From the IMG/VR virus record IMGVR_UViG_3300033150_001690: 64,000 bases of DNA; one strand, given 5' to 3'. Below the pieces are notes generated by a model. It saw only the letters and a program-made list of their open reading frames with translations. It was not told where the DNA came from and did not search any database. Of this stretch, positions 293-63,255 are shown in pieces. The position numbers and the translations under genes were made by a program. How positions within the stretch are numbered: the first letter of the stretch is position 1; every line of letters starts with the position of its first letter. Source of the DNA: an uncultured virus (IMG/VR IMGVR_UViG_3300033150_001690). Its lineage: Duplodnaviria; Heunggongvirae; Uroviricota; Caudoviricetes.

Positions 293-657
293 AGTTAGTG
301 TATTTATCTTATCCCTATAAGGGAGACATAGAGAAGAATACTAGAAATGCTAGAATATTGGGTCAAGTATTAATGAGAGATCATCCTGACTGGTTTGTAA
401 TAGTACCTCACACAGCAGTAGATGGTCTAATATTTGATCATATACCAAACAGTGACCAGGTCACTCTATCACAACACTTACAGGCTATAGAGTATGAATA
501 TCGTGTCTTAGAAGCAATAGACATCTTTGTAATTGGGACACCTTTAGGGGAGGAAAGTGAAGGTATGATCTGGGAGTTAGGATATGTGAATCACTTAAAC
601 AATAGGAGAAAGAAGAAGATTCAGGTTATAAGGACCATTAGAGGAGGAGAAGGTTAA
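289..657 (+). CDS. Nucleoside 2-deoxyribosyltransferase-like (DUF1937/DUF4406-type) protein
   Basis: N-terminal VYLSYPY, PH motif, and ESEG-x2-WE-x2-Y near the C-terminus. Confidence 0.6.
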   Translation: MKLVYLSYPYKGDIEKNTRNARILGQVLMRDHPDWFVIVPHTAVDGLIFDHIPNSDQVTLSQHLQAIEYEYRVLEAIDIFVIGTPLGEESEGMIWELGYVNHLNNRRKKKIQVIRTIRGGEG

Positions 658-876
658 ATGAAGAAAGGAGAACTTGAGAAAAGAATTAAGAAGAAGTTAG
701 TTAGTATTCTTGAAGAAGCTAAGCAAGAGTTTCCAAAACTAGGTATTGGAGGCTCTAATGATCTTCAGAGTATCTACAATTATTCTGAGACTACAGAAGA
801 AGCATTAAGCATTGCACTAGAAACACTTCAAGAAGTAAAGGAATGGTTTGAAAAGTGGTTTGGAGAAAATGGTTAA
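658..876 (+). CDS. Hypothetical protein
   Basis: ORF with GGAGG RBS, translationally coupled to neighbours. Confidence 0.6.
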   Translation: MKKGELEKRIKKKLVSILEEAKQEFPKLGIGGSNDLQSIYNYSETTEEALSIALETLQEVKEWFEKWFGENG

Positions 877-1423
877 AATAGAGATAACTAAATTCCCCTG
901 TCCTAAATGTGGCCAATACTTCCCTCCTAGTCTAATATTGAAGAACAGGGCTATTATGAGATGTCCTATTCATGGTCTCTATGAAGTTGATATAGATAGA
1001 TCTCTTCATTTCAGGAGCTTCTGTAGTAAGATAGCTAGTCACAGTAACAAGTCTAGGGACTATTACACTTCAACAGAAAGAAAGATCTTAACAATATTAA
1101 GAGAACTAGGATATAAAGAAGGATTTGACTTCATACATAATGTTAGATTTAAGAATGGTAAGAAGTATTATTGGGGAGATTTCTACTTTCCAAATAAAGA
1201 ACTAATACTGGAAGTCTCCCCTGCAATTTGGCATAAAATGTGGGGAAGAAGAGTTTCAGAAGAAACAAAGAAAATATTCTTTAAGAAACATGGTATAACA
1301 GTTATAGAGATAACAGAACCTCTGTTAAATGCTTCTAAGAAGTTACTCAAGAGAGCTTTAAAGAATATTCTAGATAATATACACGGAATACAAGAAAAGA
1401 CATATAGGTATGAGGTCGTATGA
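848..1423 (+). CDS. Zn-finger plus DUF559/Vsr-like PD-(D/E)xK endonuclease (start probably ATG 869)
   Basis: CPKC...CPIH zinc knuckle; TSTE..., GDFYF...LILEV...WH motifs. Confidence 0.7.
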   Translation: MKSGLEKMVKIEITKFPCPKCGQYFPPSLILKNRAIMRCPIHGLYEVDIDRSLHFRSFCSKIASHSNKSRDYYTSTERKILTILRELGYKEGFDFIHNVRFKNGKKYYWGDFYFPNKELILEVSPAIWHKMWGRRVSEETKKIFFKKHGITVIEITEPLLNASKKLLKRALKNILDNIHGIQEKTYRYEVV

Positions 1424-1424
1424 A

Positions 1425-1541
1425 ATGAAGAAAGGTCCTGCTTATTATGAGAAGATCTGGAGAGATGGGAGGTATATCGTGGTTGTATACGATAAGAATG
1501 GTAAAGTTATTACTAAATATGAAGAAGGTGAGAAAATATGA
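1425..1541 (+). CDS. Small hypothetical protein (38 aa)
   Basis: MKKGPAYYEKIWRDG...; fills the gap and overlaps the radA start (ATGA). Confidence 0.45.
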   Translation: MKKGPAYYEKIWRDGRYIVVVYDKNGKVITKYEEGEKI

Positions 1542-2539
1542 GTGAAGAAAAAGAGAGTACCTTGTTACAGGTAAAAGGAATAGGTCCTAAAACAGTAGAG
1601 AAGTTAGAAAATACTGGAGTATCTGACATTACTCAACTAGCTGTAATGAGACCAGAAGAACTAAAGAGTCTTCTAGGAATAACTCTAAAGGCCGCTAAAG
1701 ACATTGTTAATGATGCTAAGAATAAGGCATTAGATAAGGCCATCAAGACCTCTACGTTTGCTGAGAGACTAGAACATAGAAGAAAGATCATACAAAGAAT
1801 ACCTACAGGTTGTAGTGAACTAGATAGACTGTTAAATGGAGGAGTACCTACAGAAGCAATAACTACATTTAAAGGAGAATATGCTAGTGGGAAGACCCAG
1901 TTCTGCAATCAGTTAGCAGTTAATTGTTTGAAGTATTTGAAGAGAAAAGTAATATGGATAGAGACAGAAGCAAGTACCTTTATACCTGAAAGAGTGAAGG
2001 AGATGGCTGATGCTATTGGTCTTAAGATAGATGGAGAGAATGACTTTATAGTGATCCCTGCTGATCAGATAGCTACACCATATAACCAGTTTCTAGCATA
2101 TGAGAGGGCTATGAAGGAGGCTAGAAGAAGAAATATGGATGTAGGTCTCTTTATAGTAGACTCCTTCACTGCTAAGTTTAGAGGCTTCTACTCTGGAAGA
2201 GAGATGTTTCCTGATAGAGCTAAAGAAGAGGCCAGACATCTAGGGTATTTGGATATGTTAGCTAGTAACTATAATATGGCAGTGGTCTTAACAGCACAAG
2301 TAATGGGTATACCTGACACAGGTCAACAACTAGGAGAGAGAGTGAAGACAGGTCATACTAAGAGAATGTGGGGAGGAGACCTGATCACACACTGGAGTAC
2401 ATATATTATTAGTCTTCAGAAGATGTCTCTTACAGACTGGGAGGCTATTATAGCAGATGCTCCAGATGTAGCTATGAAGAGTGTACGTTTCAGGTTAACT
2501 TCCGCAGGTATAAGAGATATTCCTGGAAGAAGACGTTAG
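1538..2539 (+). CDS. radA: DNA repair and recombination protein RadA (Rad51-like)
   Basis: N-terminal HhH (VKGIGPKT), IPTG-x3-LD-x2-LNGGV, Walker A GEYASGKT, Walker B LFIVDS. Confidence 0.93.
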   Translation: MSEEKESTLLQVKGIGPKTVEKLENTGVSDITQLAVMRPEELKSLLGITLKAAKDIVNDAKNKALDKAIKTSTFAERLEHRRKIIQRIPTGCSELDRLLNGGVPTEAITTFKGEYASGKTQFCNQLAVNCLKYLKRKVIWIETEASTFIPERVKEMADAIGLKIDGENDFIVIPADQIATPYNQFLAYERAMKEARRRNMDVGLFIVDSFTAKFRGFYSGREMFPDRAKEEARHLGYLDMLASNYNMAVVLTAQVMGIPDTGQQLGERVKTGHTKRMWGGDLITHWSTYIISLQKMSLTDWEAIIADAPDVAMKSVRFRLTSAGIRDIPGRRR

Positions 2540-2570
2540 TTTATGTTAAACAAAATAAAGAGGTGATAAA

Positions 2571-3551
2571 ATGGGTGGAGAGATACCTGAGAAATATACA
2601 AAACTTCTGGATAAGGGCAGTAAGAAGTGGGGCGTAAAGAAGGAGGAGTTATCTAACCTTCTTACTAGCTACTATAATGAAGTAAATGACTGGAGTAAGG
2701 CCTGGAGAAGACTTAAAGTAGAGATGAGTGCAGAAGCTGGATCCTTCTTATCTTCAGCTACTATGTTCTATGCCTATCTAATAGGAGACAGTGGAATGTT
2801 TGACTGGATAGAGAGAATGAGACAGAAGGCGTTAGCAATGTATAATGACCCAGAGAGAAGAGAAGAGGCCATATCTAAAGGATATGTTACTATAGATGGA
2901 ACTCCCTTAGACTGGAGAGATAAGAAGTTTGGAAGGGATAATCCTCAGAAGGGTCTACCATTAGAAGGAGAAGAGTTTGAAAGAGATCTATTTGCAGTAA
3001 TATCAGAGTCTCCTGACTTCAGTAATGTTGAAGTAGGAAGAGTAATAGCACTAGGAGACAGTGCAGAAAATATGAAGGATATTGAACTCTTCAAGTTCTA
3101 CAAGTTTAGAGCCACTAGAAGAAAGAGAAGTAGACCTGATCTTCCTCTTCAACTAAATGTTACTTCTGTGACCAAGTTTAGAGAGATAGACCCTGGAATA
3201 ACACCTGGAGAACTAGCTAATAAAATACCATACTTAGATGTAGATGAACATATTATCTTTGAAGAATATAAAGAGAAGTATCTTAATAAGCCTAGGTCTT
3301 CACTGTTCTCTTCTATTAGAGGAGTAGTTCAGGAAATATCTACTTCTCCTGTTAAAAACAGAAGATCTTTTGCTATAGTGTCTACTGATGAAGAAGACTT
3401 TGCAGAATGGGGTCTGGTCTGTAGAATGTCAGTAAACATTCCTGTTATCTTCAAAGTAAATGATGAGGTCCAGGTCTTTGGAAGAATATGGCAGAGTAGA
3501 AGATCAGGGAAGTTTGGAGTAGATGTACAAGGATATTTGGTGGTAGAGTAA
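2571..3551 (+). CDS. Putative OB-fold ssDNA-binding (RPA-like) protein
   Basis: Adjacent to radA; OB-like strands (IRGVVQEI, EVQVFGRIW, LNVTSVTKF); inferred from context. Confidence 0.5.
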   Translation: MGGEIPEKYTKLLDKGSKKWGVKKEELSNLLTSYYNEVNDWSKAWRRLKVEMSAEAGSFLSSATMFYAYLIGDSGMFDWIERMRQKALAMYNDPERREEAISKGYVTIDGTPLDWRDKKFGRDNPQKGLPLEGEEFERDLFAVISESPDFSNVEVGRVIALGDSAENMKDIELFKFYKFRATRRKRSRPDLPLQLNVTSVTKFREIDPGITPGELANKIPYLDVDEHIIFEEYKEKYLNKPRSSLFSSIRGVVQEISTSPVKNRRSFAIVSTDEEDFAEWGLVCRMSVNIPVIFKVNDEVQVFGRIWQSRRSGKFGVDVQGYLVVE

Positions 3552-3552: not shown

Positions 3553-4392
3553 ATGTCAGAAGAAAAAGTACCAGAAACAGAAGTGTCTTTAGAGACAGTG
3601 ATCTGGGTAGATCCTAAGAAGTTGAAAGTAGCTCCTACTAATGTTAGAGTAGAAGAGATACCTGATGAAGAAAAAGAGAAGATGAGAAGATCTGTAGAAC
3701 ATGAAGGGATCAAACAACCTATTATTATTAATGAAAACTATGAAGTAGTATCTGGAGGAGTAAGATGGTCAGCAGCACTAGCAGCAGGTCTAGAGAAGGT
3801 CCCATGTATTATGAGACACTTTAATAACAAATATGAAGAGAGAATAACTTGTATGTTACAGGACTTCTTCCATCATCCTATTAGTCAAAGAGCCAAATAT
3901 CTCTTTGTTAAGAAGTGTATAGAAGAAGATGGTATGACTATTAAAGACATAGCTAAGTCTCTAGGAGTAACAGAATATACTGTTAGAAGATGGGCTAATT
4001 ATGAATGGGTCCCTGAACAGATCAAAGACAAGCCAAAATATAAACAAATGTATTTATTAACTTCTGGTAAGAAGAAGAGAGCTATAGAATCAGTATTAAA
4101 ACATCCTGAGTTTAAAGATGATATTAATAGAAGTCTTCAGCTAATTGAAATGACCAGAGAAGCAGGTCTAAGGGAGTTAGAGAGTATAAAGAAAGATGTT
4201 AACACAGGTCTATGGGTAGATCTTGACTTTAGAAGAAAACTAGCTAATATGGAGACTGCTCTAATAGAAGTGAAGATCCCTAAGAGACTAGATCTTCTCT
4301 TCAGGAAGAAACTAAGAATAGAAAGAAAAGACTTCAACAAAGTCCTAGTGGATCTTATCCAGAAGTATGTAGATGGAGAAGTGGAGGTATAG
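3553..4392 (+). CDS. ParB/Srx-family protein with HTH and C-terminal RHH-like segment
   Basis: NVR...SV-x2-EGIKQPIII...VVSGGVRW ParB-N motifs; HTH MTIKDIAKSLGVTEYTVRRW. Confidence 0.85.
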   Translation: MSEEKVPETEVSLETVIWVDPKKLKVAPTNVRVEEIPDEEKEKMRRSVEHEGIKQPIIINENYEVVSGGVRWSAALAAGLEKVPCIMRHFNNKYEERITCMLQDFFHHPISQRAKYLFVKKCIEEDGMTIKDIAKSLGVTEYTVRRWANYEWVPEQIKDKPKYKQMYLLTSGKKKRAIESVLKHPEFKDDINRSLQLIEMTREAGLRELESIKKDVNTGLWVDLDFRRKLANMETALIEVKIPKRLDLLFRKKLRIERKDFNKVLVDLIQKYVDGEVEV

Positions 4393-4792: not shown

Positions 4793-5074
4793 ATGGAACA
4801 TGTGAAGGAAAGGTTAGCTTCCTTAGAGACCAAAGTTGCAGAAATGGAGAAAAGAATAGATGAACGCTTAGATATTATTTCTAAGAAGGTTGATGAAATA
4901 AGAGAGAATTTAGTTAATGAGCTAGCACATACTAAGGAGAGATTAGATTATATAGAGACCGAAGTAGAGAAGAATAAAGGGAAGAGTGACCTGGTCAACA
5001 ACTGGATCAAGCCTATTATCATAACTCTTATTACTATCTTCTCAACATATTTCCTGACTAAAGGAGGATGGTAG
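4793..5074 (+). CDS. Coiled-coil protein with C-terminal TM helix (XhlA/holin-like)
   Basis: Heptad-rich N-terminus, hydrophobic IKPIIITLITIFSTYFL tail. Confidence 0.55.
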   Translation: MEHVKERLASLETKVAEMEKRIDERLDIISKKVDEIRENLVNELAHTKERLDYIETEVEKNKGKSDLVNNWIKPIIITLITIFSTYFLTKGGW

Positions 5075-5078: not shown

Positions 5079-6062
5079 TTGGATCTTATTGTAGAAGAAC
5101 TTGTTAAAAAACATTGGAAGAAAATAAGTAAGAAGAAGAACGTTATAGGATATTCAGGTCATTTACAACCTAAGATAGTAGCAGGAAAGATATATCCTTC
5201 TAGAAAGGCCTTTAGAATATATGTCTCTAAAAAGATGAAGGTCAAAGATCTACATCCTAGAGATATAATACCTATGAAGTTAAATGCTTCTAATGGTATT
5301 TATGAGACTGATATTATTGAAATAGGGGAAATAAAGGCCTTAGATAATAAAGAAAGAAGAAGACCTGTCTGTGCAGGAATATCTACTATGCACTATGGAA
5401 TGGAGGGAGACACTGCCTGTACTATTAATGGTTTCTTCAGAGATAATGAGACCAAGGAGATGTTAGTTGCTAGTAATTGCCACTGTTATGCGAGGGAGAA
5501 TAAAGCGAAGATAGGAGATCCTGTGGTACAACCTGGACCATATGATGGAGGAACTGCTTTAGATGTTATAGGTCATCTCTTCAAATATGTACCAGTAAAG
5601 TTTAATCACTTCACATGTCCTATTAGAAATGCCCTGGTGAAGATAAAGAGATTCTTCACCAGGGAGGATACCTCCAACAAAGTAGATATAGCATTTGCTA
5701 CAATAGAAGTACCATACGAAGTAATAGCAACTTATATTGGTCCTTTTAAAGGAAAGACCACCTTCAAAATAGGTGACCAGGTCACTAAAACAGGAAGGAC
5801 CACTGAACAGACATATGGCAAAGTGGTAGACATTGATTATAATGGAAGAGTACAATATTCTAGAGGAATAGCATGGTTTACTGACTGTTACTTGATACAG
5901 GGTCATCACTTCAGTCAGGGAGGAGATAGTGGAAGTCCTGTCTTTGACATGAACGGTAACTATGGAGGAGCATTATTTGCAGGAAGTGATGAATTTACTG
6001 TGGTCTGTAAAGTGGAGAACATAGAAGAGATAGGAGATGTTACTTTAATTGTCTCTTCTTAG
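5079..6062 (+). CDS. Trypsin-like serine protease (Nal1-like)
   Basis: Catalytic triad motifs SNCHC, VDIA, GDSGS; GRTT motif. Confidence 0.85.
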   Translation: MDLIVEELVKKHWKKISKKKNVIGYSGHLQPKIVAGKIYPSRKAFRIYVSKKMKVKDLHPRDIIPMKLNASNGIYETDIIEIGEIKALDNKERRRPVCAGISTMHYGMEGDTACTINGFFRDNETKEMLVASNCHCYARENKAKIGDPVVQPGPYDGGTALDVIGHLFKYVPVKFNHFTCPIRNALVKIKRFFTREDTSNKVDIAFATIEVPYEVIATYIGPFKGKTTFKIGDQVTKTGRTTEQTYGKVVDIDYNGRVQYSRGIAWFTDCYLIQGHHFSQGGDSGSPVFDMNGNYGGALFAGSDEFTVVCKVENIEEIGDVTLIVSS

Positions 6063-6510
6063 AAGAGTAGACTTCACTTATTTCTTTATGTTTCTATTTC
6101 AGTTTATCCTGTATAGAATGGATGGTCTGGTCTACTCTACGTTAGATAAAATAGGGTGGGAGTGGGGTCTGACCTGGTGGATCTTTATGTTTCTTATTGT
6201 ATTAGTAACTTCTTTTATGTTGTTTTCCTCCTGTGGTGATAAACAAGGTCTCTGGTACTTTATATTCTTTCTTTTACTATATATTGGAGACATTCAAAAT
6301 CTGTTCTATATCTTTAACATTCCTACACCTGTGTTTTTAAGAGATCCAAACTTCATTTATTTCTGGAATATCTTTTATATTCTCTTTGGATACCCTTGGA
6401 CCTTAAAAGAAGAAATATGTTTGTGGGTTCTAATTTGGTCTCTTTTAGCAGGTATTTATTTATATATGAGAAGAAGATTTAACATTTATGGGTTGATCAA
6501 GAATGAGTAG
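6049..6510 (+). CDS. Multi-pass membrane protein
   Basis: About four hydrophobic helices, F/W/I/L-rich. Confidence 0.75.
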   Translation: MSLLRRVDFTYFFMFLFQFILYRMDGLVYSTLDKIGWEWGLTWWIFMFLIVLVTSFMLFSSCGDKQGLWYFIFFLLLYIGDIQNLFYIFNIPTPVFLRDPNFIYFWNIFYILFGYPWTLKEEICLWVLIWSLLAGIYLYMRRRFNIYGLIKNE

Positions 6511-7816
6511 TATAAGAGACTTCTTATTTGGTAGAAAGAAGGAGGACTGGACCGTTCAGGCATTAGAGTCTAAATCAATAGAAGATATTAAGACTTTAAT
6601 GTCTCTTAGAGTTGGTGAAAAACAGGCAAAAGAACAATATAAGAAGTTATATGAGAAGGATGGTCTTACTTTTATGTTAGTTAATTACTTAGATCATAAG
6701 ATAGCAGGTCAAGGGTTCTATTTTGATGGAGATAGTGACCTGGTCAACAAACTAGAAGAGTGGTCTGAAGAAGTTGGTCTAAAGTTTGTTCTTAAGCATA
6801 TAGTTAAAGATGCTATTATCTATGGTACGGCCTGGATAGAACTAGTGTTGTCAGAAGATTATAGAAATATAGAAGACTTCAGGTTCTTTGATCCTACTAA
6901 AATGGACTTTGCTAGAGATAATTCAGGGAAGATTAAGTTAGATGAAAACGGAGAACCTCTTTGTATAGTACAAGAAGAAGGTCTTAAGAAGAGAGAATGG
7001 TACAAAGATCGTATAGAAGAAAATGGTAAAATAATAATTAAGGCAGGAAGAGGAGATGATTTCAGGAAACATATAGCATACTTCAAACTAGAAAGTTATG
7101 GTGATGATCCTATAGGTCTAAGTCTAATAGCTCCTATTTACAGGTCTGCTATTATTAGAAGTAATATATCAGACATGGTTGGAGAAGCAGCATATAGAGG
7201 GGGAGGTATAGTAGCATATTTATCAGGTAATCCTCCAGAAGAAGTAAAGAAGAAATTAGCAGAAGACCTCAAGAATATTACTTCTAAAAATATCTTTGTA
7301 TTTAGTGATAAGATCAGATTAGACCTAGTTCCTATTCCTGATACACGAGAGAGAGAAGGTCTTATTTATTATCTAGCAGATGAAGAAGCATCCACATTTG
7401 GAGTACCATTGGATGTTCTAATGTGTGGAGTAAAATCATATAGACAAGATCTTCCTTCTAAGTTAGCAGATATGGAAGCTAGAATATCTTCTTATCAGGA
7501 ATACATAGCATACCAGTTTAATAAACAGGTCATAGATTTTCTCCTTCGTTTATGGAAGACAGATAAGAAGGCTAAATTGGTCTTTAGAACACAATCTCCA
7601 AGTATTAAGTTATCTAGATCTAGAAGAATAGCTACATTAGCAAGAAGAGGTCTAATAAGATATGATCCACAATTAGAACTTCACTTAAGAAGAGAAGAAG
7701 GTCTTCCTGTTAAGTTTGTACAGTTATCTCTTAAACAATGGCAGGAAGAGAAGAAGTCTCCCGAAGAGATTAAGTCAGATGTAGAAATTATAGCGAAGGA
7801 AGAAGATGAAGTTTAA
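6503..7816 (+). CDS. Portal protein
   Basis: 437 aa; DAIIYGTAWIELV, YG-x3-GLSLI-x-P and FGVP-x2-L motifs typical of HK97/Mu-type portals. Confidence 0.85.
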   Translation: MSSIRDFLFGRKKEDWTVQALESKSIEDIKTLMSLRVGEKQAKEQYKKLYEKDGLTFMLVNYLDHKIAGQGFYFDGDSDLVNKLEEWSEEVGLKFVLKHIVKDAIIYGTAWIELVLSEDYRNIEDFRFFDPTKMDFARDNSGKIKLDENGEPLCIVQEEGLKKREWYKDRIEENGKIIIKAGRGDDFRKHIAYFKLESYGDDPIGLSLIAPIYRSAIIRSNISDMVGEAAYRGGGIVAYLSGNPPEEVKKKLAEDLKNITSKNIFVFSDKIRLDLVPIPDTREREGLIYYLADEEASTFGVPLDVLMCGVKSYRQDLPSKLADMEARISSYQEYIAYQFNKQVIDFLLRLWKTDKKAKLVFRTQSPSIKLSRSRRIATLARRGLIRYDPQLELHLRREEGLPVKFVQLSLKQWQEEKKSPEEIKSDVEIIAKEEDEV

Positions 7817-7895: not shown

Positions 7896-9029
7896 TTGAG
7901 AGAGATGTTAGAAGAAGAAGAGTATCTAGATAAAATAGTACAAGGTCATGTGTTAGAAGTGTTAAAACAGATACCTTCTGAAGTAGCAGATGCTGTTGTA
8001 ACAAGCCCTCCCTACTATTTTCAAAGGGATTACGGAGAAGGATCTGAAGCAATATGGGGAGGAGATCCTTCCTGTGATCATAAATGGGTAGAATATGAGA
8101 GAGCTAGTAACTGTTGGAGTGTCCCTGGAAGAGGAGCATATGGAGTAAAAGGAGAATATAATAAGGCCTGGGTCAAATCTCATAAACAGGCATTTTGTAA
8201 GAAGTGTGGAGCATGGAAGGGTCAATTAGGTCTAGAACCTGTATGGTGGATGTATATTGAACATCTTAATATGGTCTTTCATGAAACAAAGAGAATATTG
8301 AAGAAGACAGGGACCATGTTTATAGTTGTAGGAGATACATACTTTGGAGGGAGAGGTTTTAACGATCGTAGAGTAAAGAAGAACTTCAGAACTAAGATCA
8401 ACTATGAATTTAGAAAGGAGATGCAGGATAAAGACCCTATCTATCAACCTAAATGTTTAATGGGTATTCCATATAGACTAGCGTTTAGACTAATAGAAGA
8501 TGGGTGGATCTGGAGAAATAACATTATATGGTATAAACCTAATCATATGCCACATCCTGTTAGAGACAGATTAACTAAGGCATATGAAAGTATTCTCTTC
8601 TTTGTAAAGAACAGAAAGTATTTCTTTAATTTAGATGCAATAAGAGAACCACATAAGTGGGCTTCTAAAGACAAACGATCTTTGCTAAGAAGAGTCCCTC
8701 ATAAAAGTGGAAAATCTCTAACTGGTCAATATAGTAGTAATGCAGTAGGGTATCATCCTCTTGGACGTAATCCTGGAGATGTTTGGAAGATTAAAACATC
8801 CTCTTTTAAAGGAGCACACTTTGCGGTCTTTCCTGAAGAACTAGTGAAGAAATGTCTTATAGCAGGCTGTCCTGAAAATGGAGTAGTATTAGATCCATTT
8901 ATAGGAAGTGGTACTACAGCAGTAGTAGCTAAGAGTCTAGGTCTACATTATATTGGCATTGAAGTAGTTCCTAAATATGTAGAGATGGCCAGAAATAGAA
9001 TAAAGGGGAAGTTAGACTATTATCTGTGA
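7896..9029 (+). CDS. Site-specific DNA methyltransferase, beta class (N4-C/N6-A) with Cys/His insertion
   Basis: Motif IV TSPPY precedes motif I DPFIGSGTT; HFAVFP; insert CDHKW...FCKKCGAW. Confidence 0.93.
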   Translation: MREMLEEEEYLDKIVQGHVLEVLKQIPSEVADAVVTSPPYYFQRDYGEGSEAIWGGDPSCDHKWVEYERASNCWSVPGRGAYGVKGEYNKAWVKSHKQAFCKKCGAWKGQLGLEPVWWMYIEHLNMVFHETKRILKKTGTMFIVVGDTYFGGRGFNDRRVKKNFRTKINYEFRKEMQDKDPIYQPKCLMGIPYRLAFRLIEDGWIWRNNIIWYKPNHMPHPVRDRLTKAYESILFFVKNRKYFFNLDAIREPHKWASKDKRSLLRRVPHKSGKSLTGQYSSNAVGYHPLGRNPGDVWKIKTSSFKGAHFAVFPEELVKKCLIAGCPENGVVLDPFIGSGTTAVVAKSLGLHYIGIEVVPKYVEMARNRIKGKLDYYL

Positions 9030-9074: not shown

Positions 9075-9371
9075 GTGTCTTATTTGAAGACAAAGACCAT
9101 TCTTGGTGAAGATCTTAAACCTGTTATAATTCTTAGAGATTTAGAAGATCTTGAAGAGTTAGCCAGAAGATGGAAACAGGAGATATGGGAGACTGATCTT
9201 GCCTATTATATACTAACCCCTAACTATATTTGGAAGGTTTTTAAAGAGAAGATGTGTGAAACTGTAGAAGAGTCACTACCTCTTAAAGTAAAACAATATC
9301 CTCTTAAGACCAGTACTGATTCTATTTCTTATGAAGGAAAATGGATGTATGATGTTCCTGTAACATGTTAG
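9075..9371 (+). CDS. Hypothetical protein
   Basis: ORF downstream of a TATA-like TTTAAAA. Confidence 0.55.
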   Translation: MSYLKTKTILGEDLKPVIILRDLEDLEELARRWKQEIWETDLAYYILTPNYIWKVFKEKMCETVEESLPLKVKQYPLKTSTDSISYEGKWMYDVPVTC

Positions 9372-9381
9372 GAGGGATAAT

Positions 9382-9600
9382 ATGGCTCATGCAGAAATTT
9401 GTCCTGTATGTAACGGAAAAGGAGTTATAGAAGAGGAAATAGGTTCTACAGGTGAAAAGTCTATTAAAGTCTGTCATGGTTGTGGAGGAAGAGGATGGAT
9501 AGAAGTGAGAGATGATCCTTGTTATTCTCCATGGTACCCTTATACTATAGCGTGGACTGTAAAAGGAAGTCAGAATTATGATCCAAATATCAGTAAATGA
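9382..9600 (+). CDS. DnaJ-type CxxCxGxG zinc-finger protein
   Basis: CPVCNGKG and CHGCGGRG. Confidence 0.8.
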   Translation: MAHAEICPVCNGKGVIEEEIGSTGEKSIKVCHGCGGRGWIEVRDDPCYSPWYPYTIAWTVKGSQNYDPNISK

Positions 9601-10757
9601 CATTTTTAGGAAGTGTAGTTATGGAAGAAGAACTAACTAAGGAATTGCTAGAAGAAGAATACAATAATGGTCTGTCAGTTAGAGAGATAGCCAGAAAATA
9701 TGGAGTTTCTAAAGGAAGAATAGATTATTTATTTGACAAGTATGGTATAGAGAGAAGAAGTGTAAGTGAAGCATTAATCCTGAAGGCTAGTAAAGAACGA
9801 GAAGAGAGAATAGAAGAGGCTAGAGTGATATTAGAGGAAGATTTGAGGAAGATTCATATAAAGAAGAGAAAAATTAAACCTCTTAAAAGGAGACATCTTC
9901 TTGTTCCACTATCGAACAGTAAGGAGTGTACTATAACAGTAGTGATCTCTGATCTACATCTAGGAGATAGTAATCATCTTCCTGATACTTACTGGTCTAC
10001 TATAGCTAATTTGAAGGAAGTACTCAGTTATATCAATAAGAACTATTCTATTAAGGCCTTCTACATAGTATTAAATGGTGACCTGGTCAGTGGAAGAGAT
10101 GTATATAAATTTCAAGAACTAAGAAATCTTCTAGACAGAGGTCATTGGCAGGTCTTTCTAGCAGAGTATGTGTTGAAGAAGACCTTCAAAATGTTAGAAG
10201 ATATTAGACCAATTACTAGAGTTTATTTAGTGAAGGGCACTCATGAATCACTAGCTAATAACTTTGTATTATACTTGAAGAGAATGTTAGGAGATAAGGC
10301 CTATTATTTAAGTCATGGAGGAGTAGTAAATATAGCTGATCCAATAGGAGAATACAATGTGTTATTTACTCATGGATCATCTTATTCTGAATATTGCCCT
10401 ATACCTCCTAAGTTAATGAGAGACGTTCTAGCGGAAGTAAACAAACAGAAGGAGAGAGGAGTATATATTGAAAGAGTATGTACAGGTCATACTCACTGGT
10501 TATCTCCTAGTTTAATAATAGGAGATGTTTACTGGGATGTAACAGGTGGTTTCCAGAAGTGGGAGTACACTCTTCATCAGAGACCAAGTGGAGTAATATT
10601 GTACTTCTATAGTTCTAAGGAAGTATCTTCTATTCCTATTAGACCAGATCCAGAGATAGAAGATGAAGAACAAAGTGAAGTAGGTCTAGAATATAAAAAC
10701 TTGAAATATTATGGAGAATGTCTTCTAGAACATTTAAAGAAAATAGAGGGAAGATAA
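9597..10757 (+). CDS. HTH plus calcineurin-like metallophosphoesterase
   Basis: HTH LSVREIARKYGVS; DLHLGD, NGD, GTHE, THG, GHTH motifs. Confidence 0.85.
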   Translation: MTFLGSVVMEEELTKELLEEEYNNGLSVREIARKYGVSKGRIDYLFDKYGIERRSVSEALILKASKEREERIEEARVILEEDLRKIHIKKRKIKPLKRRHLLVPLSNSKECTITVVISDLHLGDSNHLPDTYWSTIANLKEVLSYINKNYSIKAFYIVLNGDLVSGRDVYKFQELRNLLDRGHWQVFLAEYVLKKTFKMLEDIRPITRVYLVKGTHESLANNFVLYLKRMLGDKAYYLSHGGVVNIADPIGEYNVLFTHGSSYSEYCPIPPKLMRDVLAEVNKQKERGVYIERVCTGHTHWLSPSLIIGDVYWDVTGGFQKWEYTLHQRPSGVILYFYSSKEVSSIPIRPDPEIEDEEQSEVGLEYKNLKYYGECLLEHLKKIEGR

Positions 10758-15784: not shown

Positions 15785-16477
15785 ATGGTTGATATTGGAG
15801 TTTGTAGTATGATCCGTAATGAGATAGAGATTCTTCCAGCATATTATAGATATATCAAAAAATGGGCTAACAGTTGGTATGTTTTGGATCATGGAAGTAA
15901 TGATGGGTCTTTGGAATTCTTGTATAGAATGAAGGATCGTGATGAAATTTCAATTGAAGTACTTGAGAGACCTTCTTTGGATTTTAATAAAGACTTCTAT
16001 AGAGAAGTTAATTATATCATCTCAAAATGTAAGAATAAGTGGACATTCTGGGGTCATATTGACGAATTTATCATGAATGCCAAAGAAGTATTTCAAAAGA
16101 TCACTCAGGAAGAAGCAGTTTATTCCTTCACTAGATTAGAAATGATCCAGTTGTGTCCTCCTTTGTATTTGACCAGGGAAACGTTTGTAAGGCTATTTCC
16201 TACTTCTTGGAAAATTAGATGGAGAGAAGGGCATCATGTTCATTCAGAGAGTCCTGTGATCCCTAAAGATAGACCTATTAAGAGAGCTGACTGTTTAATG
16301 TTCCACATTGGGAGGTGTAGAAACATAGAACATATTAGAGAAAAAGAACGATCATATGAGGCTTGTAGTGGAAGTAGTGTCCTTGGATCGAAGTATTCTG
16401 AAGAGAGAAGAGAGGAGGAGAGAAGAAAAGCTAAACTTTTAGAAGTATACATTGATATATCGAGGTTTCTAATATGA
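15785..16477 (+). CDS. Glycosyltransferase family 2-like
   Basis: IRNE, LDHGSNDGS, HIDE. Confidence 0.8.
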   Translation: MVDIGVCSMIRNEIEILPAYYRYIKKWANSWYVLDHGSNDGSLEFLYRMKDRDEISIEVLERPSLDFNKDFYREVNYIISKCKNKWTFWGHIDEFIMNAKEVFQKITQEEAVYSFTRLEMIQLCPPLYLTRETFVRLFPTSWKIRWREGHHVHSESPVIPKDRPIKRADCLMFHIGRCRNIEHIREKERSYEACSGSSVLGSKYSEERREEERRKAKLLEVYIDISRFLI

Positions 16478-50734: not shown

Positions 50735-51245
50735 AGGTCTCCCATCTCTCCCTAAACTTCTCTATTAGTTCTGGAGGGAAGTCCTCCATACAATATAATA
50801 TTCTAGTAAATATATCCTCTTTAGCAGGTTCTAATTGAATTTTAGAAGACCATTTAAGAAGCTCTTCTATTATTAACCTGGTCTCTGCTAAATAGTCTAA
50901 TAAGACCTTCTCTTCATCTTTACTTAATGAAGCACTTTGTACTAAACTCTCTATTTTGTTGGAGCATATCTCCAGGTTTCTAGTTAGTCTTTGTGCTATT
51001 TGGATATCTTTTCTAATACTCTCTCTTAGTACCTTCTGTCTTAGTTGAGAAGACTTTCTTAGTTCATTAAGATACACTTCTACGTGATTATTAAAATGTC
51101 TAACAAAGGAGTAATATCCGATATCTTCTCCATACTTCTCTTTAGCATATTCTTGGATCTCTTTAATACTCTTTCTCTCTACAAATCTCATATGTTCATA
51201 TTCTGTTCTGTGGAGAGATCTACAAACATTACATACTCGACCCAT
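50718..51245 (-). CDS. Probable terminase small subunit (start ATG 51245)
   Basis: Directly upstream of terL; CNVC...RH-x3-H plus helical domain; GGTGA RBS (TCACC at 51250-51254 on +). Confidence 0.7.
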   Translation of the reverse strand: MGRVCNVCRSLHRTEYEHMRFVERKSIKEIQEYAKEKYGEDIGYYSFVRHFNNHVEVYLNELRKSSQLRQKVLRESIRKDIQIAQRLTRNLEICSNKIESLVQSASLSKDEEKVLLDYLAETRLIIEELLKWSSKIQLEPAKEDIFTRILYCMEDFPPELIEKFRERWETFGSSS

Positions 51246-51437
51246 TATATCACCATGAAGGATAATGACCGGGTCATTTATTAATTTATCGCACAAGGTC
51301 TGATTATTGTACTACACAGTAGATAGTGCACATCTTATGAGCAGGTAAGAAGGGTGTTTCTTCTTCTCTCTCTCTTTTATTTTTGAATTTTAAAATGTTA
51401 AATATGAGTTATGCATATTTGCTTATAGGTGTCAAAT

Positions 51438-58000: not shown

Positions 58001-59317
58001 TTGGGAGAAGATACTATCCTATGTTAAAGAGAAGACAAGAGTGGGAACACTTTTAACTAATGATACATGGGGAATATGGAGATATATTCTATCTAAACAA
58101 TTAACTATACAGGATACATTTCCTGTTTCTTCTTTAAGAGTATTTGAAATAAAATGGTCTCCTTCGGATCTTTAACATGGAGATTTGAAAGATGAATAAC
58201 GATAAGATATTAGAAGAAATTAAAGCATGGTTAGGAAACAGACTAATACCTAAAGAAGATGCAGATCTTCTTCTTGACCTGGTCATTCAGTATGGGAATG
58301 AGAAGGAACACGAAGGAGAACTTATTGGAGAAGAACGTGGGTATGAAGAAGGATATGAAGAAGGATATGGAGTAGGTTATAGTAAAGGAAGAGAAGAAGG
58401 TATTACTGAAGGAAGAGATCAAGTAATATCAGAAATAGAATATGATCCTCTTATTTCTTTCGAAGATAAACGAAGTGTCTTACGAAGATTTGGAATATTA
58501 GTTTAAGGAGGAAGAAATAAAATGCGAATATATGAAGAACTACCCTGTGGATGTCTGGTCTCTAGAGAAGATCAAGCTATGATACCTTGTTGTTATCCAG
58601 AAGTGGGTCAACGACCGTCTAAACTTCATTTAAGATGTATGGAGTTATTCTTCAAAGAAGGAAAGTCAGTAGAAGAGATTAAACAAATTGTGAAAGAAAG
58701 GAAGGTTTAACGAATGAAGATCCTTTCTGAAGAAGAGAAGAATTGTATTGAGATCGCAATAGATAAATTTAGATTTTATAAATCTCTTCTTAAGGCCCAT
58801 CTAGATACTCTTACTTGTTATTGTAAGACCTGTAAAGAGAAGTCATTTGAGGCCTGTAGTGATTGTGATGTTTATAAATATCTTAACAAAATTCTTAAGG
58901 AGTTCTAAGAATGAAGAGACCCAAACTAACTAAAGATACGGAGACAGGAATTAAGAACGCTATAGATGAGTATCTTCTTTCTAGAAGAGTATTAGAGATC
59001 TGGTTAGCTATTCTTACTTCTATTTGTGGGAGATGTAAACTGTCTTCTAAATCCTGTATAGATTGTAAAATTGGGAAATATAAAGATAAACTTGTGGAGA
59101 TCCTTGACAATGAGTAAGAAGAAAATGATCAAAGGATCTATTCCTGTAGAAGAAGTTAAGAAGAGTATTAGTATACTTCAAGAGAAGATCAAAGAACTCA
59201 AAGAAGATCTTGAAAAGGCTAAGGAATTAGAAGAAAAAATACAGATTCTACATCTTTTACAAATTTATGAGAGAGACCTTACCTTATTTCAGGGTCTTTT
59301 AAAGGAGATTAACTAAG

Positions 59318-59419
59318 ATCTTCGGGCAGAAAGGATATGGAAGAAGTTACATGATACCGAACTTCAACCATACAAAGAACTTTTGGACCCAACTTCTTCC
59401 ATATCCCTGTAAAGAAGAT
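59318..59419. ncRNA. Candidate structured RNA: perfect 16-bp stem within a bulge-helix-loop
   Basis: GGATATGGAAGAAGTT (59333-59348) pairs with AACTTCTTCCATATCC (59391-59406); intergenic. Confidence 0.5.
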
Positions 59420-61894
59420 TGGGAGGAGTAAAAATACCTCTTAATTGTATCTTATGTGGAAGAAAATATCTGAAGAAGGACTGGAGAGATCATTTAAGGA
59501 GAGATCATAGAATACCTGAAAAATTTATTGATAAGTATAAGTTCTTCGTTATAAGAAGAAGTGATACTAACATTCCTGTTATAGAAGACAGTAAATGTCC
59601 TTCCTGTGGGTCAACTATTTCTCCTAAGATATTATATTGGAGACAAGATGGACCCGAAGAAGAGGTAAGTAAAGCAAGAAGGTTATATCATCTTCCTCTT
59701 CTTCTCACTGGATACTGTCCTAATTGTGGTCAGTTAGTCTTCATACGTAAAGTTTATTTGATTAAAGAAGGTGACCAGGTCACAGGTGAAAAGCAATGAG
59801 AACAGAAGAAGAGATAAGAAAGAAGTTAGATACTCTTCGTAGAATGAGAAGATATGAGTTTAGTAGATGGAAGGGAGTACTATTTGACCAGAAGATTAGA
59901 GCATTAGAATGGGTCCTAGAGGAGTTGGAGGACCTATGATCCCTAGATGTCCTGTATGTAAACACCCATTAGAAGAAGTTAGGGAAGAATATAGATCTGT
60001 TTCTACATACAAATATTCTTCTAATGATCAAGGATATGACGTAATTAAAGATGAAGAAAACTTTGTTTTAGTATGTCCTTATTGTGGTTCTGTTCTTCCT
60101 AATAAAGTAGCTGAGAAGATTATTCCTAAACTTCCACTTCCTTCTTCTATTAATCTCTAAATGAGGAGAATTTGATGTGTAATGTTAGATGTGCAAACTG
60201 TGGTCGTATAATAGATTCTGAAGATTCTGGAGAAACAGCCTTTTGTGAACAATGTTATAAAGAAGTAATCAAAGAGGTAGAGAGAAAAGCATATTTAGAA
60301 GGATTTAATCACGCAATAGAACTATTAGAAGTAACTTATAAAGAACTAACTAAAGAAAAATAATGATAGACCCTCCACTAAAGAAGTTCTTCTTCTTTAA
60401 GGGAGAAAGGTCGGTATACATGAGAGATCCAAACATTTTTAGAGAGTTTAATTTAGAAGAAGAGGCACACATAGATGAAGTGGTTCATGTATTGGAAGAA
60501 TTAGAACACTGGTCTACTTCACCATTGAAGGAGAAGATAGAGTGTAGACTAAGAGAGTAAAGGAGGTGAGAATGAATGAACAAAATAGTGATTCCCTTAG
60601 AAGAGCTCCTAAGAGTAGTTTGGAAGAAACATAATGGTGAGATGACAGATGAAGATGTGGAAGAATGGTTCGAGAGAAAGACATCTGCTTCTTCAAATAA
60701 GGAGGAAGAAGATTGATAGAAAATCTCGTTGTAATTGGAATGATCGGAGAAATAGTGAAGTTATTAGGATATCTTATATTAGAAGAACATGGAAATGAAA
60801 GAATAACTTCATGGGGATGTTCTCTGTTTTCTTCTGGTGTTAGCAGGTCTATTTCTCTAAAGGAGGTATGAACTTGCTTATTCTTCAGAAGTTTAGTTGT
60901 CCTAACTGTAGATACTTCTATAGAGTATTGTCTGAGGTCTATACTGATAAACAAAAGGAGGTCTTAGAGACACAGGAGGTATCCTGTCCTAGATGTAATA
61001 CTAGAATGAATCTTATTACTGAAGAAGTATCAGACATCTTCTCTTCAGTTAAAGATGGAGAAAACATTAGAATATATCTCTTTGGAGATGAAATAGTGAA
61101 TATCTCTCCTGAAGAGATTAGAGTTAATTTAGGTAATTTGATCTTCAATGGATTTAATGGTCTTGTTTCTATTGAATATTCTCTAAATAATATTGTTTCT
61201 TTAGAGGTCTTTCCTGACTCTCAAAGTTATGCATTTTTCAAGAAGAAGAACAAAAAGAAATTAGGAGAATAGAACATGTCTAAGAATTGGAAGAGAAGAT
61301 TTAAGAGACTTCATAAACGATTTATAAAAGAAATGACCAGTATTCTAGAGTCTTCTAAGCTTCTAAGTGAAGAGAAACTTCTACAAGTAATTGGGACCTG
61401 GAATTTAGATCTATCTGAGGTCTACAATTTTCTAGTAAGTGAAGAGAAGAAGAAAAAGAGATTAACAGAAGGAGTTAAAGAGGCTAAGAATAATAAACAA
61501 GAGTCTTCTAATAACGAAGAACTGAAGAGGGCAACTTCTACTTCATCTTATTATGGATACTCCTATGTTGTATATCCTTCCACTAAGAAAATAAGTGAAG
61601 TGGAGAAGGATTTAGATTGAGTAAGATAGAAGAATTAAAAAAATATGTTCTTCAGTTGAGAAATAAAACAATAACTGATAAAGAGATCGCCCAAGTAATG
61701 AAATTAATTAATGAAGCATTAGACGAAACATATACTTCAGGTTATAGTCAAGGATCTTATGAAGGATACGAAGAAGGATACCATGCTAGATATGAGAGTT
61801 AGGAGGTAATATTTAAAAGAAAAACAGGATTACCTTATTCTTATGATCTTATTCTTCAGAATTATATCAGAAGATAGTTAAAGAGAGGAGAATA

Positions 61895-62791
61895 ATGACG
61901 ATTTATATTCTAACTAATGTGACCTCTTCATTATATAATAAACCTACAGGTCTAAAACTAGCAGAACTAGGAGGGTTTACTCCAATTAGACCTAGTGACC
62001 TGGTCAACCTTCATCCTGAGAGAGGAGATGTATTAATACGATATGGTATTTCTTCTTATCCCAATAAAGACCTAGAGTTTACCATAGGTTGGGTCTTTAA
62101 TAAAGCAGATGATATCAGGAAGGCTTCTAATAAACTAATAGCTTCTAGAATCATGTATACTCATTCTATTGATACTCCTAAGATATGGACCAACAAAGAT
62201 CTAATAACAGAAGATGATCTTCCTGTTTTAGGAAGAGATCAGTATCATTCCAGAGGATCTGATATTGTCTTCATAGATACCATGGAGAAGTTAAGAAGAA
62301 GTCATAAAGACTATTACTCCAAATTTATACCTTCAATAGCAGAGTATAGACTTCATGTGTTTAAAGGAGAGCCAATTAGATTAAGTAAGAAGATCCCTAC
62401 TGAAGAAGAGAGTATTATTCATAACTTTGAGAATGGCTATAGATTTATGGATAGATGGGGGAGAGAAGAGGGAGATCTAGAACTAGAAACTAATGTAGTA
62501 ATACCTGCTGGTCTAAGGGCTATAGAGGTCTTTAACTTAGATTTTGGAGCAGTTGATATTCTAATATCTGAAGGGAAAACTCCATATATATTGGAGGTTA
62601 ATACTGCTCCTAGATTAAATAAATATGGAAGACAATTATATGTTTACTACTTCAGGTCTAAGTGTATGAGTGAAGATGATGACCCAGGGAAGTATGCTTA
62701 TACTAATTATTCTAGATTAAGATTAAATGAAGGACCACTAAGTAATGGTCTACCTATAACGTTTAGAGATATTGTAAAAAGAAGGAGGTGA
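61895..62791 (+). CDS. ATP-grasp ligase (RimK/YheC-like)
   Basis: ASNK, EYRLHVF, LDFGAVDI, ILEVNTAP. Confidence 0.88.
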   Translation: MTIYILTNVTSSLYNKPTGLKLAELGGFTPIRPSDLVNLHPERGDVLIRYGISSYPNKDLEFTIGWVFNKADDIRKASNKLIASRIMYTHSIDTPKIWTNKDLITEDDLPVLGRDQYHSRGSDIVFIDTMEKLRRSHKDYYSKFIPSIAEYRLHVFKGEPIRLSKKIPTEEESIIHNFENGYRFMDRWGREEGDLELETNVVIPAGLRAIEVFNLDFGAVDILISEGKTPYILEVNTAPRLNKYGRQLYVYYFRSKCMSEDDDPGKYAYTNYSRLRLNEGPLSNGLPITFRDIVKRRR

Positions 62792-62795
62792 AGAA

Positions 62796-62984
62796 TTGGA
62801 AGAAGAAGACATGAAGTTCTTCTTTACATTCTTTCTATTGATTCTTTTATGAATCTTCAACTTATTAGGAGAAGTATCTAAACTAACAGAAAATACAGTT
62901 CATCAAGTAATTGCTATAATAGGATCAACTATTTGTATTATTGGTCTTGTTCTAGCATACATAGGAGACAGAATATTCTCTTAG
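62796..62984 (+). pseudogene. Two-TM membrane protein gene interrupted by an in-frame TGA (62850-62852)
   Basis: MEEEDMKFFFTFFLLILL*IFNLLGEVSK...IAIIGSTICIIGLVLAYIGDRIFS*, preceded by GGAGGTGA RBS. Confidence 0.5.
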
Positions 62985-63048
62985 TCTTCCTTCCTTGGAA
63001 TCCTGAATGAGGAGTACCTCTTCAGGACAAGGAGAGTGAAGAAGAAAT

Positions 63049-63255
63049 ATGAAAATATATTGTAAAATAGAAGATGTTTCTATGGATCCAGAAGGGAATA
63101 TAGTGTTGTTCTTTAGTAAAGAAAAAGAGACAACTAGAGAAGTTACAATATCTTTATTGAAGAATTGGATAGGTCAAGAAGTTATTATCACAATATCTCC
63201 TTTGGTAAGAAGACATGACCAGGTCACGGAGGATATAGGAATTGAAGGTGTATAA
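63049..63255 (+). CDS. Hypothetical protein
   Basis: ORF between the two ligase genes. Confidence 0.55.
   Translation: MKIYCKIEDVSMDPEGNIVLFFSKEKETTREVTISLLKNWIGQEVIITISPLVRRHDQVTEDIGIEGV

Follow-up and report, generated by a model that had tools for sequence, protein, structure and literature searches.

A palindrome repeated inside the genes of an uncultured vent virus as a predicted genome-wide site for a dimeric DNA-binding protein

Introduction

The IMG/VR record IMGVR_UViG_3300033150_001690, a tailed virus of the Caudoviricetes, was analysed over a stretch of 64,000 nucleotides (nt), hereafter the window; the genome of this virus is estimated at roughly 100–110 kb, so that about 40% of it probably lies outside. 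The window raises the question of why an 11-base palindrome, TGACCNGGTCA, recurs along it, nearly always inside genes, and which protein might read it. A first-pass annotation, made from the letters alone, had taken the palindrome for a selected binding site of a dimeric protein. With moderate confidence we reach a similar reading: TGACCNGGTCA is probably a selected, high-specificity predicted site through which a dimeric DNA-binding protein would act on the genome as a whole. The virus was treated as an archaeal-type tailed virus from hydrothermal vents, since the homologues of its large terminase subunit TerL were all metagenomic, one partial match being source-labelled as a Thorarchaeota metagenome-assembled genome, and since the runs sharing parts of its sequence (7 runs, 0.06–0.14 of words) were labelled as hydrothermal vent or sediment metagenomes, with no RNA run among those listed.

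Results

Enrichment, form and specificity of the palindrome

A search of the whole window revealed 16 exact copies of TGACCNGGTCA, about one per 4 kb. Allowing one mismatch gave 23 matches (16 exact and 7 one-mismatch), compared with 0.68 in shuffled sequences. All exact copies (16/16) and all one-mismatch copies (7/7) lay where the first-pass annotation, counting by eye, had placed them. The copies are given below with the open reading frames (ORFs) and encoded residues in which they lie.

453–463, exact (TGACCAGGTCA): within the 15-mer 451–465; ORF 289–657, S-D-Q-V-T
4987–4997, exact: ORF 4793–5074, S-D-L-V-N
5774–5784, exact: protease-like ORF 5079–6062, G-D-Q-V-T; orthologues have G-D-K-V or other residues
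6736–6746, exact: portal ORF 6503–7816, S-D-L-V-N
10079–10089, exact: helix-turn-helix (HTH)–metallophosphoesterase ORF, G-D-L-V-S; orthologues have G-D-I-V in 5/5
18566–18576, exact: abuts the stop codon of ORF 17567–18565; Rossmann motif of ORF 18541–19506, V-T-G-S
19722–19732, exact: nucleoside triphosphate (NTP)-transferase ORF, V-T-W-S
21849–21859, exact: NrdD, V-T-R-S; orthologues have F-T-S-F or C-N-N-Y
30225–30235, exact: ORF of the 1880-residue metallo-beta-lactamase (MBL)–ligase protein, D-D-Q-V-T
40187–40197, exact: 44 nt before the end of ORF 39804–40241; I-D-R-V-T, with a CGG codon
42418–42428, exact: inside the small ORF 42275–42478; 34 nt upstream of the tape-measure start (42462)
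51266–51276, exact: divergent region, just upstream of the minus-strand terS candidate
58275–58285, exact: ORF 58192–58506, L-D-L-V-I
59772–59782, exact: 17 nt before the end of the Zn-ribbon ORF 59419–59799
61996–62006, exact: ORF 61895–62791, S-D-L-V-N
63216–63226, exact: conserved small ORF 63049–63255; 16 nt upstream of the ORF start at 63242
19924–19934, one mismatch (TGACCTGGTCT)
33048–33058, one mismatch (TGACCAGATCA)
33443–33453, one mismatch (AGACCTGGTCA)
37781–37791, one mismatch (AGACCTGGTCA): capsid gene, R-D-L-V-N
40525–40535, one mismatch (TGACCTAGTCA)
42360–42370, one mismatch (TGACCTGGTTA)
49585–49595, one mismatch (TGACCAAGTCA): terL

Longer forms had also been noted at first pass, and five copies (453, 5774, 19722, 21849 and 59772) indeed reach the 13-mer GTGACCNGGTCAC, while positions 451–465 hold a perfect 15-mer, AGTGACCAGGTCACT. 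The central base of the 16 exact copies was A in seven, T in six and G in three, and never C.

At the window G+C content of 34.7%, mononucleotide composition predicts 0.017 copies of TGACCNGGTCA, in line with the earlier rough figure of 0.02; 100 dinucleotide-preserving shuffles gave 0.01, an order-3 Markov model 0.11, and an order-6 model, which already contains most of the 11-base word, less than one per variant. When synonymous codons were shuffled within genes 1000 times, a procedure that preserves every protein and the codon usage of each gene, the mean was 0.226 copies and the maximum 3. The first-pass annotation had named the loss of enrichment under a Markov or codon-preserving null as the outcome that would speak against a selected site; with 16 copies observed, the enrichment persisted under both. 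TGACCNGGTCA was by far the most enriched palindrome of the window, and no rival palindrome (arms of 4–6 bp, gaps of 0–4 bp) and no non-palindromic 9–12-mer in the window came near its enrichment.

The ratio of exact to one-mismatch copies was 16:7, compared with 1:30 in sequence space, which points to very specific recognition, of about 20 bits. Analysis of the flanks revealed that information falls off symmetrically, from 1.2 bits for G/C at the ±1 positions to 0.7 and then 0.2 bits, and that the flanks are otherwise unrelated among copies. This symmetric preference indicates a dyad of about 15 bp, AGTGACC-N-GGTCACT, with TGACCNGGTCA as its core.

Coding cost and origin of the sites

The copies are read as D-[Q/L/R/P]-V in 13 cases and as V-T-x-S in three, and the third frame contains TGA; the two reading frames reported at first pass were thus recovered, with P as an additional residue in the D-x-V frame. 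Codons within the motif are rare in this genome: among the codons for the same residue, GAC (Asp) accounts for 24%, GTC (Val) for 12%, CTG (Leu) for 5%, CGG (Arg) for 1% and ACC (Thr) for 12%. The motif was present at 16 of the 22 peptide positions whose residues allow it, and three of the remaining six are one-mismatch copies. Such motif-compatible peptides were themselves in excess (22, compared with 6.1 ± 2.5 and a maximum of 16 in 2000 within-protein amino-acid shuffles).

Comparison with orthologues revealed changed residues at several sites. The metallophosphoesterase motif is GDIV in all five orthologues and GDLV in the window virus; the Rossmann motif, compared with four orthologues, is L-I-T-G-G in two and L-I-T-G-S in one of them and L-V-T-G-S in the window virus; and NrdD has V-T-R-S where orthologues show F-T-S-F or C-N-N-Y. 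The motif is therefore a DNA-level signal under selection that is strong enough to alter amino acids. The orthologue columns were ungapped at sites 5774, 10079, 18566 and 21849, which shows that these sites were made by substitution and not by insertion of an element; a mini inserted palindromic element, of the SDR or REP kind, is very unlikely on the same ground.

Placement of the sites in the window

Fifteen of the 16 sites lie inside ORFs. Two are in small ORFs; for one of these, three relatives encode homologues, and for the other a single relative has a weak one. Spacing was near random (coefficient of variation 0.78 compared with 0.92), and both this coefficient and the largest gap were ordinary (P 0.75). 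Four gaps of 8.4–10.0 kb were found where 1.8 were expected (P 0.02). The earlier remark that the motif is sparse in the glycosylation, fibre and tail-tip modules consequently holds weakly: the four long gaps support it, and the largest gap and the coefficient of variation do not.

The 100 bp upstream of ORF starts hold the ends of three sites, compared with 1.96 expected (P 0.31), and comparison of the flanks in the window revealed no shared promoter-like element beside the sites. The copy at 51266, described at first pass as lying just upstream of the terS start, indeed precedes the first plausible ATG of the terS candidate, on the minus strand, by about 24 nt and falls within the TTG-extended form of its ORF. 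Oriented sites in promoters or short intergenic regions, as in stoperator systems, were not what the window contained, its sites being palindromic and intragenic. The window sites are thus most likely not promoter operators, and their spread through coding sequence regardless of gene starts makes a genome-wide role likelier than promoter control.

Palindromes of related viruses

TGACCNGGTCA was absent from all 59 TerL-linked loci (0/26 and 0/33), which reach at most 71% identity to the window TerL and include one locus at that value, and from all 12 whole relative IMG/VR records (0/12), referred to below by handles such as G001. An exact 14-mer scan of viral contigs returned at least 120 loci with one or two copies each; these were judged, no similarity search being made, to be chance matches by their copy number and their G+C (0.39–0.63 for 15 loci among the matches listed).

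Three relatives carry high-copy palindromes of their own. In G001 (109.8 kb, closed), ATAGTNACTAT occurs in 32 copies compared with 0.58 expected under the order-3 model, and TAGTNACTA in 76 compared with 4.2; G002 contains 27 and 73 copies, respectively. The G001 motif extends to AAGATAGTNACTATCTT. The 48.8-kb fragment G003 contains 16 copies of AAGATNATCTT (0.38 expected, order-3), always with G or C at the centre (AAGATSATCTT) and extending to GTAAGATSATCTTAC. The window, G001/G002 and G003 thus share the form, odd palindromes of 15–17 bp at one per 1.5–4 kb, with mutually exclusive sequences, and each high-copy palindrome is confined to its own lineage. G004, the nearest relative of G001/G002 (about 40–70% amino-acid identity in core genes), contains no ATAGTNACTAT.

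Other words, apparently of a different nature, were found in further records. The TATA-like GTTTATAAAC, possibly an element of another type, occurs eight times in G011; GTAACANNNTGTTAC occurs five times in G013, always between genes, and G007 has the AT-rich TTAATATTAA; G008, G009 and G010 yielded no convincing palindrome. In G004, TGGGA-N5-TCCCA occurs six times (41394, 51295, 78052, 84015, 90144 and 93394; simulated mean 0.2), and four of the six copies are preceded by TAG, giving ATAGTGGGA, which overlaps the ATAGT half-site of G001/G002. G005 contains a long asymmetric intergenic repeat (about CCTAAATCGATTTATCACCTA) in 10–11 copies, and 15 of its 23 AATCGATT cores are intergenic; this repeat is probably a promoter or regulatory cassette, an element of another kind. 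Phyletic profiles over 11 relatives revealed no window protein that tracks the presence of a palindrome.

The pair G001/G002, with 83% nucleotide identity in aligned DNA, allowed the conservation of sites to be analysed. Thirty of the 32 ATAGTNACTAT sites of G001 were aligned to G002, and all ten arm bases were kept in 22 of the 30, compared with 23% of aligned 11-mer windows (19,589/85,094; binomial P 7e-9). The central base differed in five of the 22 arm-conserved sites, about the background rate. The arms of the G001/G002 motif are thus under purifying selection while its centre varies freely, the pattern that a protein site with dyad symmetry should show. At several G001 sites the TAG of the motif is the stop codon of the upstream gene.

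A G001/G002 homology breakpoint was found no more than 60 bp from nine of the 32 G001 sites (null 2.6, P 0.0012), including eight of the 13 intergenic sites, for which the baseline was 28.5%. This suggests that ATAGTNACTAT palindromes border exchangeable gene cassettes in the two genomes. In the BLAST comparison of G001 (L060–L065) with G002 (L066–L071), homology often began or ended exactly at a ATAGTNACTAT site, and seven sites were within 14 bp of a breakpoint.

Candidate readers

The main genes of the window, with positions and, where given, strand, are listed below.

1538: RadA (Pfam/PHROG scan)
2571–3551: 326-residue protein directly upstream of ParB; no family match in Pfam or NCBIfam
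3553–4392, plus strand: protein with ParB N-terminal domain and HTH (Pfam ParB_N 5.5e-11, HTH_23 1.9e-6)
5079: protease-like protein (Pfam/PHROG scan)
6503: Mu-type portal (Pfam/PHROG scan)
7896–9029, plus strand: beta-class N6/N4 DNA methyltransferase (Pfam/PHROG scan)
9597–10757, plus strand: N-terminal HTH with Mre11/SbcD/PolD-DP1-like phosphoesterase
10.7–20 kb: glycosylation cluster
20192: NrdD
29554–35196: 1880-residue MBL and ATP-ligase protein
37647: capsid
41052: tail tube
42462: tape measure
49469, minus strand: TerL
50718–51296, minus strand: terS candidate, upstream of terL (from its position next to TerL and homologues in 10/11 relatives)
51–64 kb: block of small, mostly Zn-ribbon ORFs

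The motif would probably be read by a protein dimer, and the ParB–HTH protein (3553–4392) is the leading candidate, a tentative one that is given well under even odds. The first-pass description of its gene product stood up, both an N-terminal ParB domain and an HTH being present by Pfam and phmmer: residues 26–160, spanning both domains, matched ParB, Noc and Spo0J chains of the Protein Data Bank, and NCBIfam parB_part scored 46.5 bits, below its cut-off of 58.45. A ParB-family protein is thus encoded on the same replicon as its possible sites, as in ParB, KorB and Noc systems. The recognition helix is TEYTVRRW in the window virus and SPSTIREW in G001/G002; the motifs of these lineages differ as well, so that the helices could recognise different sites. 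A scan of viral contigs with the ParB alignment returned only known records and five weak unrelated matches.

The HTH–phosphoesterase (9597–10757) is a second candidate, as reader or as nuclease. It is present in the window, G001, G002, G004, G007 and G008, and its HTH varies between lineages. It also gives weak NCBIfam matches to the small subunit of archaeal DNA polymerase II (PolD DP1), is kept at 40–46% in five relatives, and has one palindrome inside its own catalytic motif. The terS product (50718–51296), whose homologues in 10 of 11 relatives are divergent (about 30% identity), is a third candidate. What probability of a protein site is not given to ParB is shared among the phosphoesterase, the terS product, an unrecognised small protein inside or outside the window and a host factor. 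The small ORFs at 51–64 kb gave Zn-ribbon-type matches only, with no ribbon-helix-helix (RHH) or winged HTH (Pfam, E ≤0.1), and no RHH, winged HTH or repressor family was found among the window small ORFs and the 126 of 176 G001 ORFs scanned.

Several observations weigh against a ParB-like reader acting genome-wide. The GxxRxxA motif is present in the window ParB as GGVRWSA, which retains G, the middle R and A; of the three arginines in the CTP motif GERRxR, two are lost and one is kept. In G001/G002 it is GGRRYRA. The ParB of G004 is 44% identical to that of G001 and has a near-identical helix (SHSTVREW), yet G004 has no ATAGTNACTAT and no high-copy palindrome, its own word occurring six times only. 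More generally, ParB is present in G001, G002, G004–G008 and G013 and absent from G009–G012, and occurs in records with and without a palindrome, so its presence does not track abundance; G011 has its eight-copy palindrome but no ParB match. Neither a ParA-type family nor a KorA-like partner was found among 65 + 42 window proteins and 126 of 176 G001 ORFs. The phosphoesterase HTH, which also differs between lineages, is equally compatible with being the reader. Finally, 13 of the 32 G001 site centres are intergenic, compared with 7% non-coding DNA, and these are concentrated in a small-gene region at 21–33 kb where the longest, 17-bp forms occur; in the G001 lineage, part of the role looks regulatory.

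Inspection by eye of the translated 326-residue protein upstream of ParB (2571–3551) revealed no Walker A motif, and it is therefore not a ParA. It has homologues in 10 of 11 relatives at 25–36% identity, and none in the G003 fragment.

Discussion

A proposed genome-wide site and its possible mode of action

The core of the first-pass proposal, a selected DNA signal with the dyad symmetry typical of a dimeric binder, is strongly supported by the codon-preserving null, the rare codons, the amino-acid changes, the symmetric decay of information to about 15 bp and the purifying selection on the motif of the sister lineage. Sites that selection maintains on the viral chromosome at a density of about one per 4 kb may act as loading or marking sites for a protein on the whole viral genome, which would find, coat, silence (also at a distance), organise, compact or segregate viral DNA. 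If the reader is ParB-like, a clamp could load at each site, slide a few kilobases and, at the observed spacing, cover the whole genome.

Comparison with known systems

By analogy, the closest working model may be KorB with its dispersed operator (OB) palindromes on the IncP plasmid RK2, followed by Noc and its binding sites (NBS) in Bacillus subtilis. OB sites have a density of about one per 5 kb (12 sites). KorB is a ParB-family, CTP-dependent sliding clamp. According to part of the text of PMC11790492, the OB core is TTTAGCGGCTAAA in the oligonucleotide described there, and KorB loads at OB sites and slides to act kilobases away. The OB and window systems have in common an odd palindrome with a free or semi-free centre, exact sites spread across about 60 kb of a mobile genome, with promoters over 1 kb away in some cases, and a ParB-family HTH protein encoded by the same element. 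They differ in that the window yielded no partner resembling KorA or IncC/ParA, its ParB arginine motif is degenerate, its sites are intragenic and change identity between related lineages, its presumed host is archaeal-type and not bacterial, and binding is only predicted.

Several near-exact palindromic sites on one replicon are also what is seen in ParB, KorB and Noc systems, whose sites measure 13–16 bp. As with Noc and ParB–parS, the candidate in the window belongs to the ParB family and aligns to Noc and Spo0J structures, and, as with Noc, the palindromes are scattered through genes across the replicon. The specificity of Noc and ParB can be reprogrammed by a few HTH residues. NBS and parS, in contrast, are palindromes of even length (14 and 16 bp); the membrane-targeting N-terminus that Noc requires is not evident in the window ParB; and the division-control or segregation function of Noc/ParB has no obvious viral counterpart.

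Three further systems resemble the window in part. MatP, which organises the Ter macrodomain of Escherichia coli through matS, is known only from some gamma-proteobacteria. The matS sites share the outer GTGAC/GTCAC arms with the window GTGACCNGGTCAC and are likewise dispersed, mostly intragenic and concerned with organising DNA rather than with promoters. matS is a 13-bp odd palindrome, GTGACRNYGTCAC, as given in part of PMC6907758; the window has C/G where matS requires R/Y. Family scans of the window proteins revealed no MatP-like match, and the likeness is probably coincidental. The stoperators of cluster A mycobacteriophages and the C1 operators of P1 are tens of near-identical repressor sites, dispersed over a whole phage genome, with immunity-specific sequences; they are asymmetric, oriented with transcription and mostly intergenic, and the phages that carry them are temperate and have a known repressor. 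None of these traits (asymmetry, orientation, intergenic placement, a known repressor) applies to the window. The cyanobacterial palindrome HIP1 (GCGATCGC) is gene-embedded, over-represented against codon-aware nulls and without an agreed function, as described in part of PMC5861425. It differs in being 8 bp long, present about once per gene in cells and tied to methylase sites, compared with 11–15 bp, about one per 4 kb and a virus here; nor was a HIP1-type enrichment of core words seen in the window.

Other explanations

A viral transcription regulator, that is, an immunity-type repressor with dispersed sites serving as operators or roadblocks to control or silence transcription units, is unlikely to account for the sites. 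The intergenic G001 sites described above would suit it, as would the window sites 16–51 nt upstream of ORF starts at 40238, 42462 and 63242 and the one just upstream of terS; fast change of specificity between lineages is, moreover, typical of immunity determinants. The intragenic position of 15 of the 16 window sites, the unremarkable number near gene starts and the lack of shared promoter elements in their flanks argue otherwise, as does the contrast between asymmetric, oriented stoperators and palindromic window sites. The window proteins and the 126 of 176 G001 ORFs scanned included no integrase and no recognisable repressor, small unannotated proteins being possible. We give a smaller chance to a site-directed nuclease or recombination system, in which the HTH–Mre11-like phosphoesterase or an HNH-like protein, with the viral RadA, would break DNA at the palindromes and so start recombination-dependent replication or module exchange. 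The virus encodes these proteins in the window, together with a ligase domain, and the G001 sites lie near homology breakpoints more often than the null predicts. Breakpoints, however, tend toward gene ends anyway, which leaves a modest excess over the intergenic baseline; the strain-variant joints in the window are at least 150 bp from the seven sites in 1–20 kb; and cutting at palindromes that lie within essential genes would carry a high cost.

Dispersed recognition by the small terminase, whereby the packaging motor would recognise viral DNA anywhere on the concatemer, appears quite improbable. It draws on the site next to terS, on the presence in both G001 and G002 of sites inside and directly after terL, and on the occurrence of a divergent TerS in 10 of 11 relatives. 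At one site per 3–4 kb, however, chance alone would place a copy near terS in a good many genomes. The known pac sites, moreover, are each a single locus, and TerS rings usually read repeated or bent DNA and not one exact dyad. A HIP1-like palindrome, produced by mutational or repair drive tied to a DNA methyltransferase and without a binding function of its own, is at least as hard to credit. The CCNGG core resembles known methylase sites, and the window encodes a beta-class N6/N4 methyltransferase. HIP1, too, is intragenic and reshapes codons, according to part of PMC5861425. Core words were nevertheless not enriched compared with order-3 expectation (CCAGG 39 compared with 44, CCTGG 67 compared with 74), specificity extends over 11–15 bp, far beyond methylase or very-short-patch repair sites, and the density is about one per 4 kb and not at least one per gene. 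Although G001 and G002 have their motif in common, the best G002 match to the 279-residue G001 methylase is only 35% identical, which also weakens the link to methylation raised at first pass. Methylase-like ORFs are widespread and occur also in relatives without a palindrome, 21 methylase-motif candidates failing to separate records with a palindrome from those without one. The unenriched CCWGG words, the low methylase identity and the spread of such ORFs thus make a methyltransferase an unlikely driver. Scarcely credible, finally, are an artefact of coding or composition, a hairpin in the RNA and a tiny mobile palindrome that inserted itself: the motif does occur only in the two frames that avoid TGA, and short hairpins can be drawn, but the codon-preserving null gives 0.23 copies, every site has the identical sequence and compensatory changes are absent, and the orthologue alignments show substitutions, not insertions. 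Hairpins were rejected on folding as well, the folds being weak (−2.1 to −6.7 kcal/mol, z −2.0 to +0.85) and the hairpin failing to form at one of the four sites that were folded.

Novelty and meaning

Literature searches found no paper in the library searched that contains the strings TGACCNGGTCA, GTGACCNGGTCAC, TGACCWGGTCA or GACCNGGTC, and, by title and start of the abstract, no report of such palindromes in Asgard or hydrothermal viruses or of over-represented palindromes in phages; the Asgard virome paper PMC13700489 contains neither 'ParB' nor 'palindrom'. The predicted genome-wide binding site is of a known kind in being a set of dispersed exact binding palindromes on a replicon, and new in its occurrence in archaeal-type viruses, in sites within genes that alter amino acids, and in lineage-specific words with a common architecture. 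Dispersed exact sites that organise or silence a whole replicon belong to a plasmid (KorB), to bacterial chromosomes (Noc, MatP, ParB) and to a few temperate phages; we know of none from archaeal viruses. Here the signal overrides protein coding, turns over between lineages with its architecture kept, and comes with candidate readers. It offers an entry point to how large archaeal viruses manage their chromosomes and how DNA–protein specificities co-diversify, and the motif can serve in practice as a marker by which such uncultured viruses of vents are binned and classified.

The turnover of the word with the architecture kept resembles, by analogy, the diversification of immunity or incompatibility specificities. 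A bolder and rather speculative extension, to which we give a minor share of belief, is that this family of viruses of about 100 kb has a private 'chromosome address code', in which each lineage would have its own odd palindrome of 15–17 bp every 1.5–4 kb, in genes as well as in spacers and at a price in codons and amino acids, on which a fast-evolving ParB-like clamp or another viral dimer would load to coat and mark self DNA. Such marking would distinguish the viral genome from host and rival DNA, with specificity switching like that of immunity or incompatibility groups; if true, the address code would amount to self-marking of an entire genome, a system that is not known from any virus.

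Other features of the virus and its relatives

No tRNA genes were found in the window. Host-directed scans of genome contigs returned no TerL relative and only a spurious bacterial RadA-like match, megablast of 25 kb against a phage collection gave no match, and a capsid-based search of viral contigs found no relative. The 1880-residue protein, in which residues 23–214 form an MBL fold and residues 829–1028 an ATP-dependent DNA ligase domain, was conserved in all 11 relatives compared, at 30–49% identity.

Contigs of four vent runs, compared with the window over 1–20 kb, are 88–99% alike, with about 3,215 differing places. These strain contigs skip or replace window positions 620–936, 6040–6494, 9244–9619 and 15726–16474; at 6040–6494, for example, 453 bases, covering the small ORF 6049–6510, are exchanged for 283 other letters. 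The strain differences at these four stretches are cassette-like.

Direct terminal repeats of identical length were found in unrelated records, namely 114 bases in G001, G002, G004 and G011, and one of 123 bases in G009; the same exact length in unrelated records looks like assembly overlap of circularly closed contigs rather than biological repeats. G001 (L062:7314–9599; L061:16564–16830; L063:15113–15763) encodes an intein-bearing DUF2201 metallopeptidase/VWA protein, a PC4-like protein and an ERCC4 nuclease. It further encodes a ThiF/E1-like protein and a TFIIB-type Zn ribbon, a gene set with a eukaryotic or archaeal flavour.

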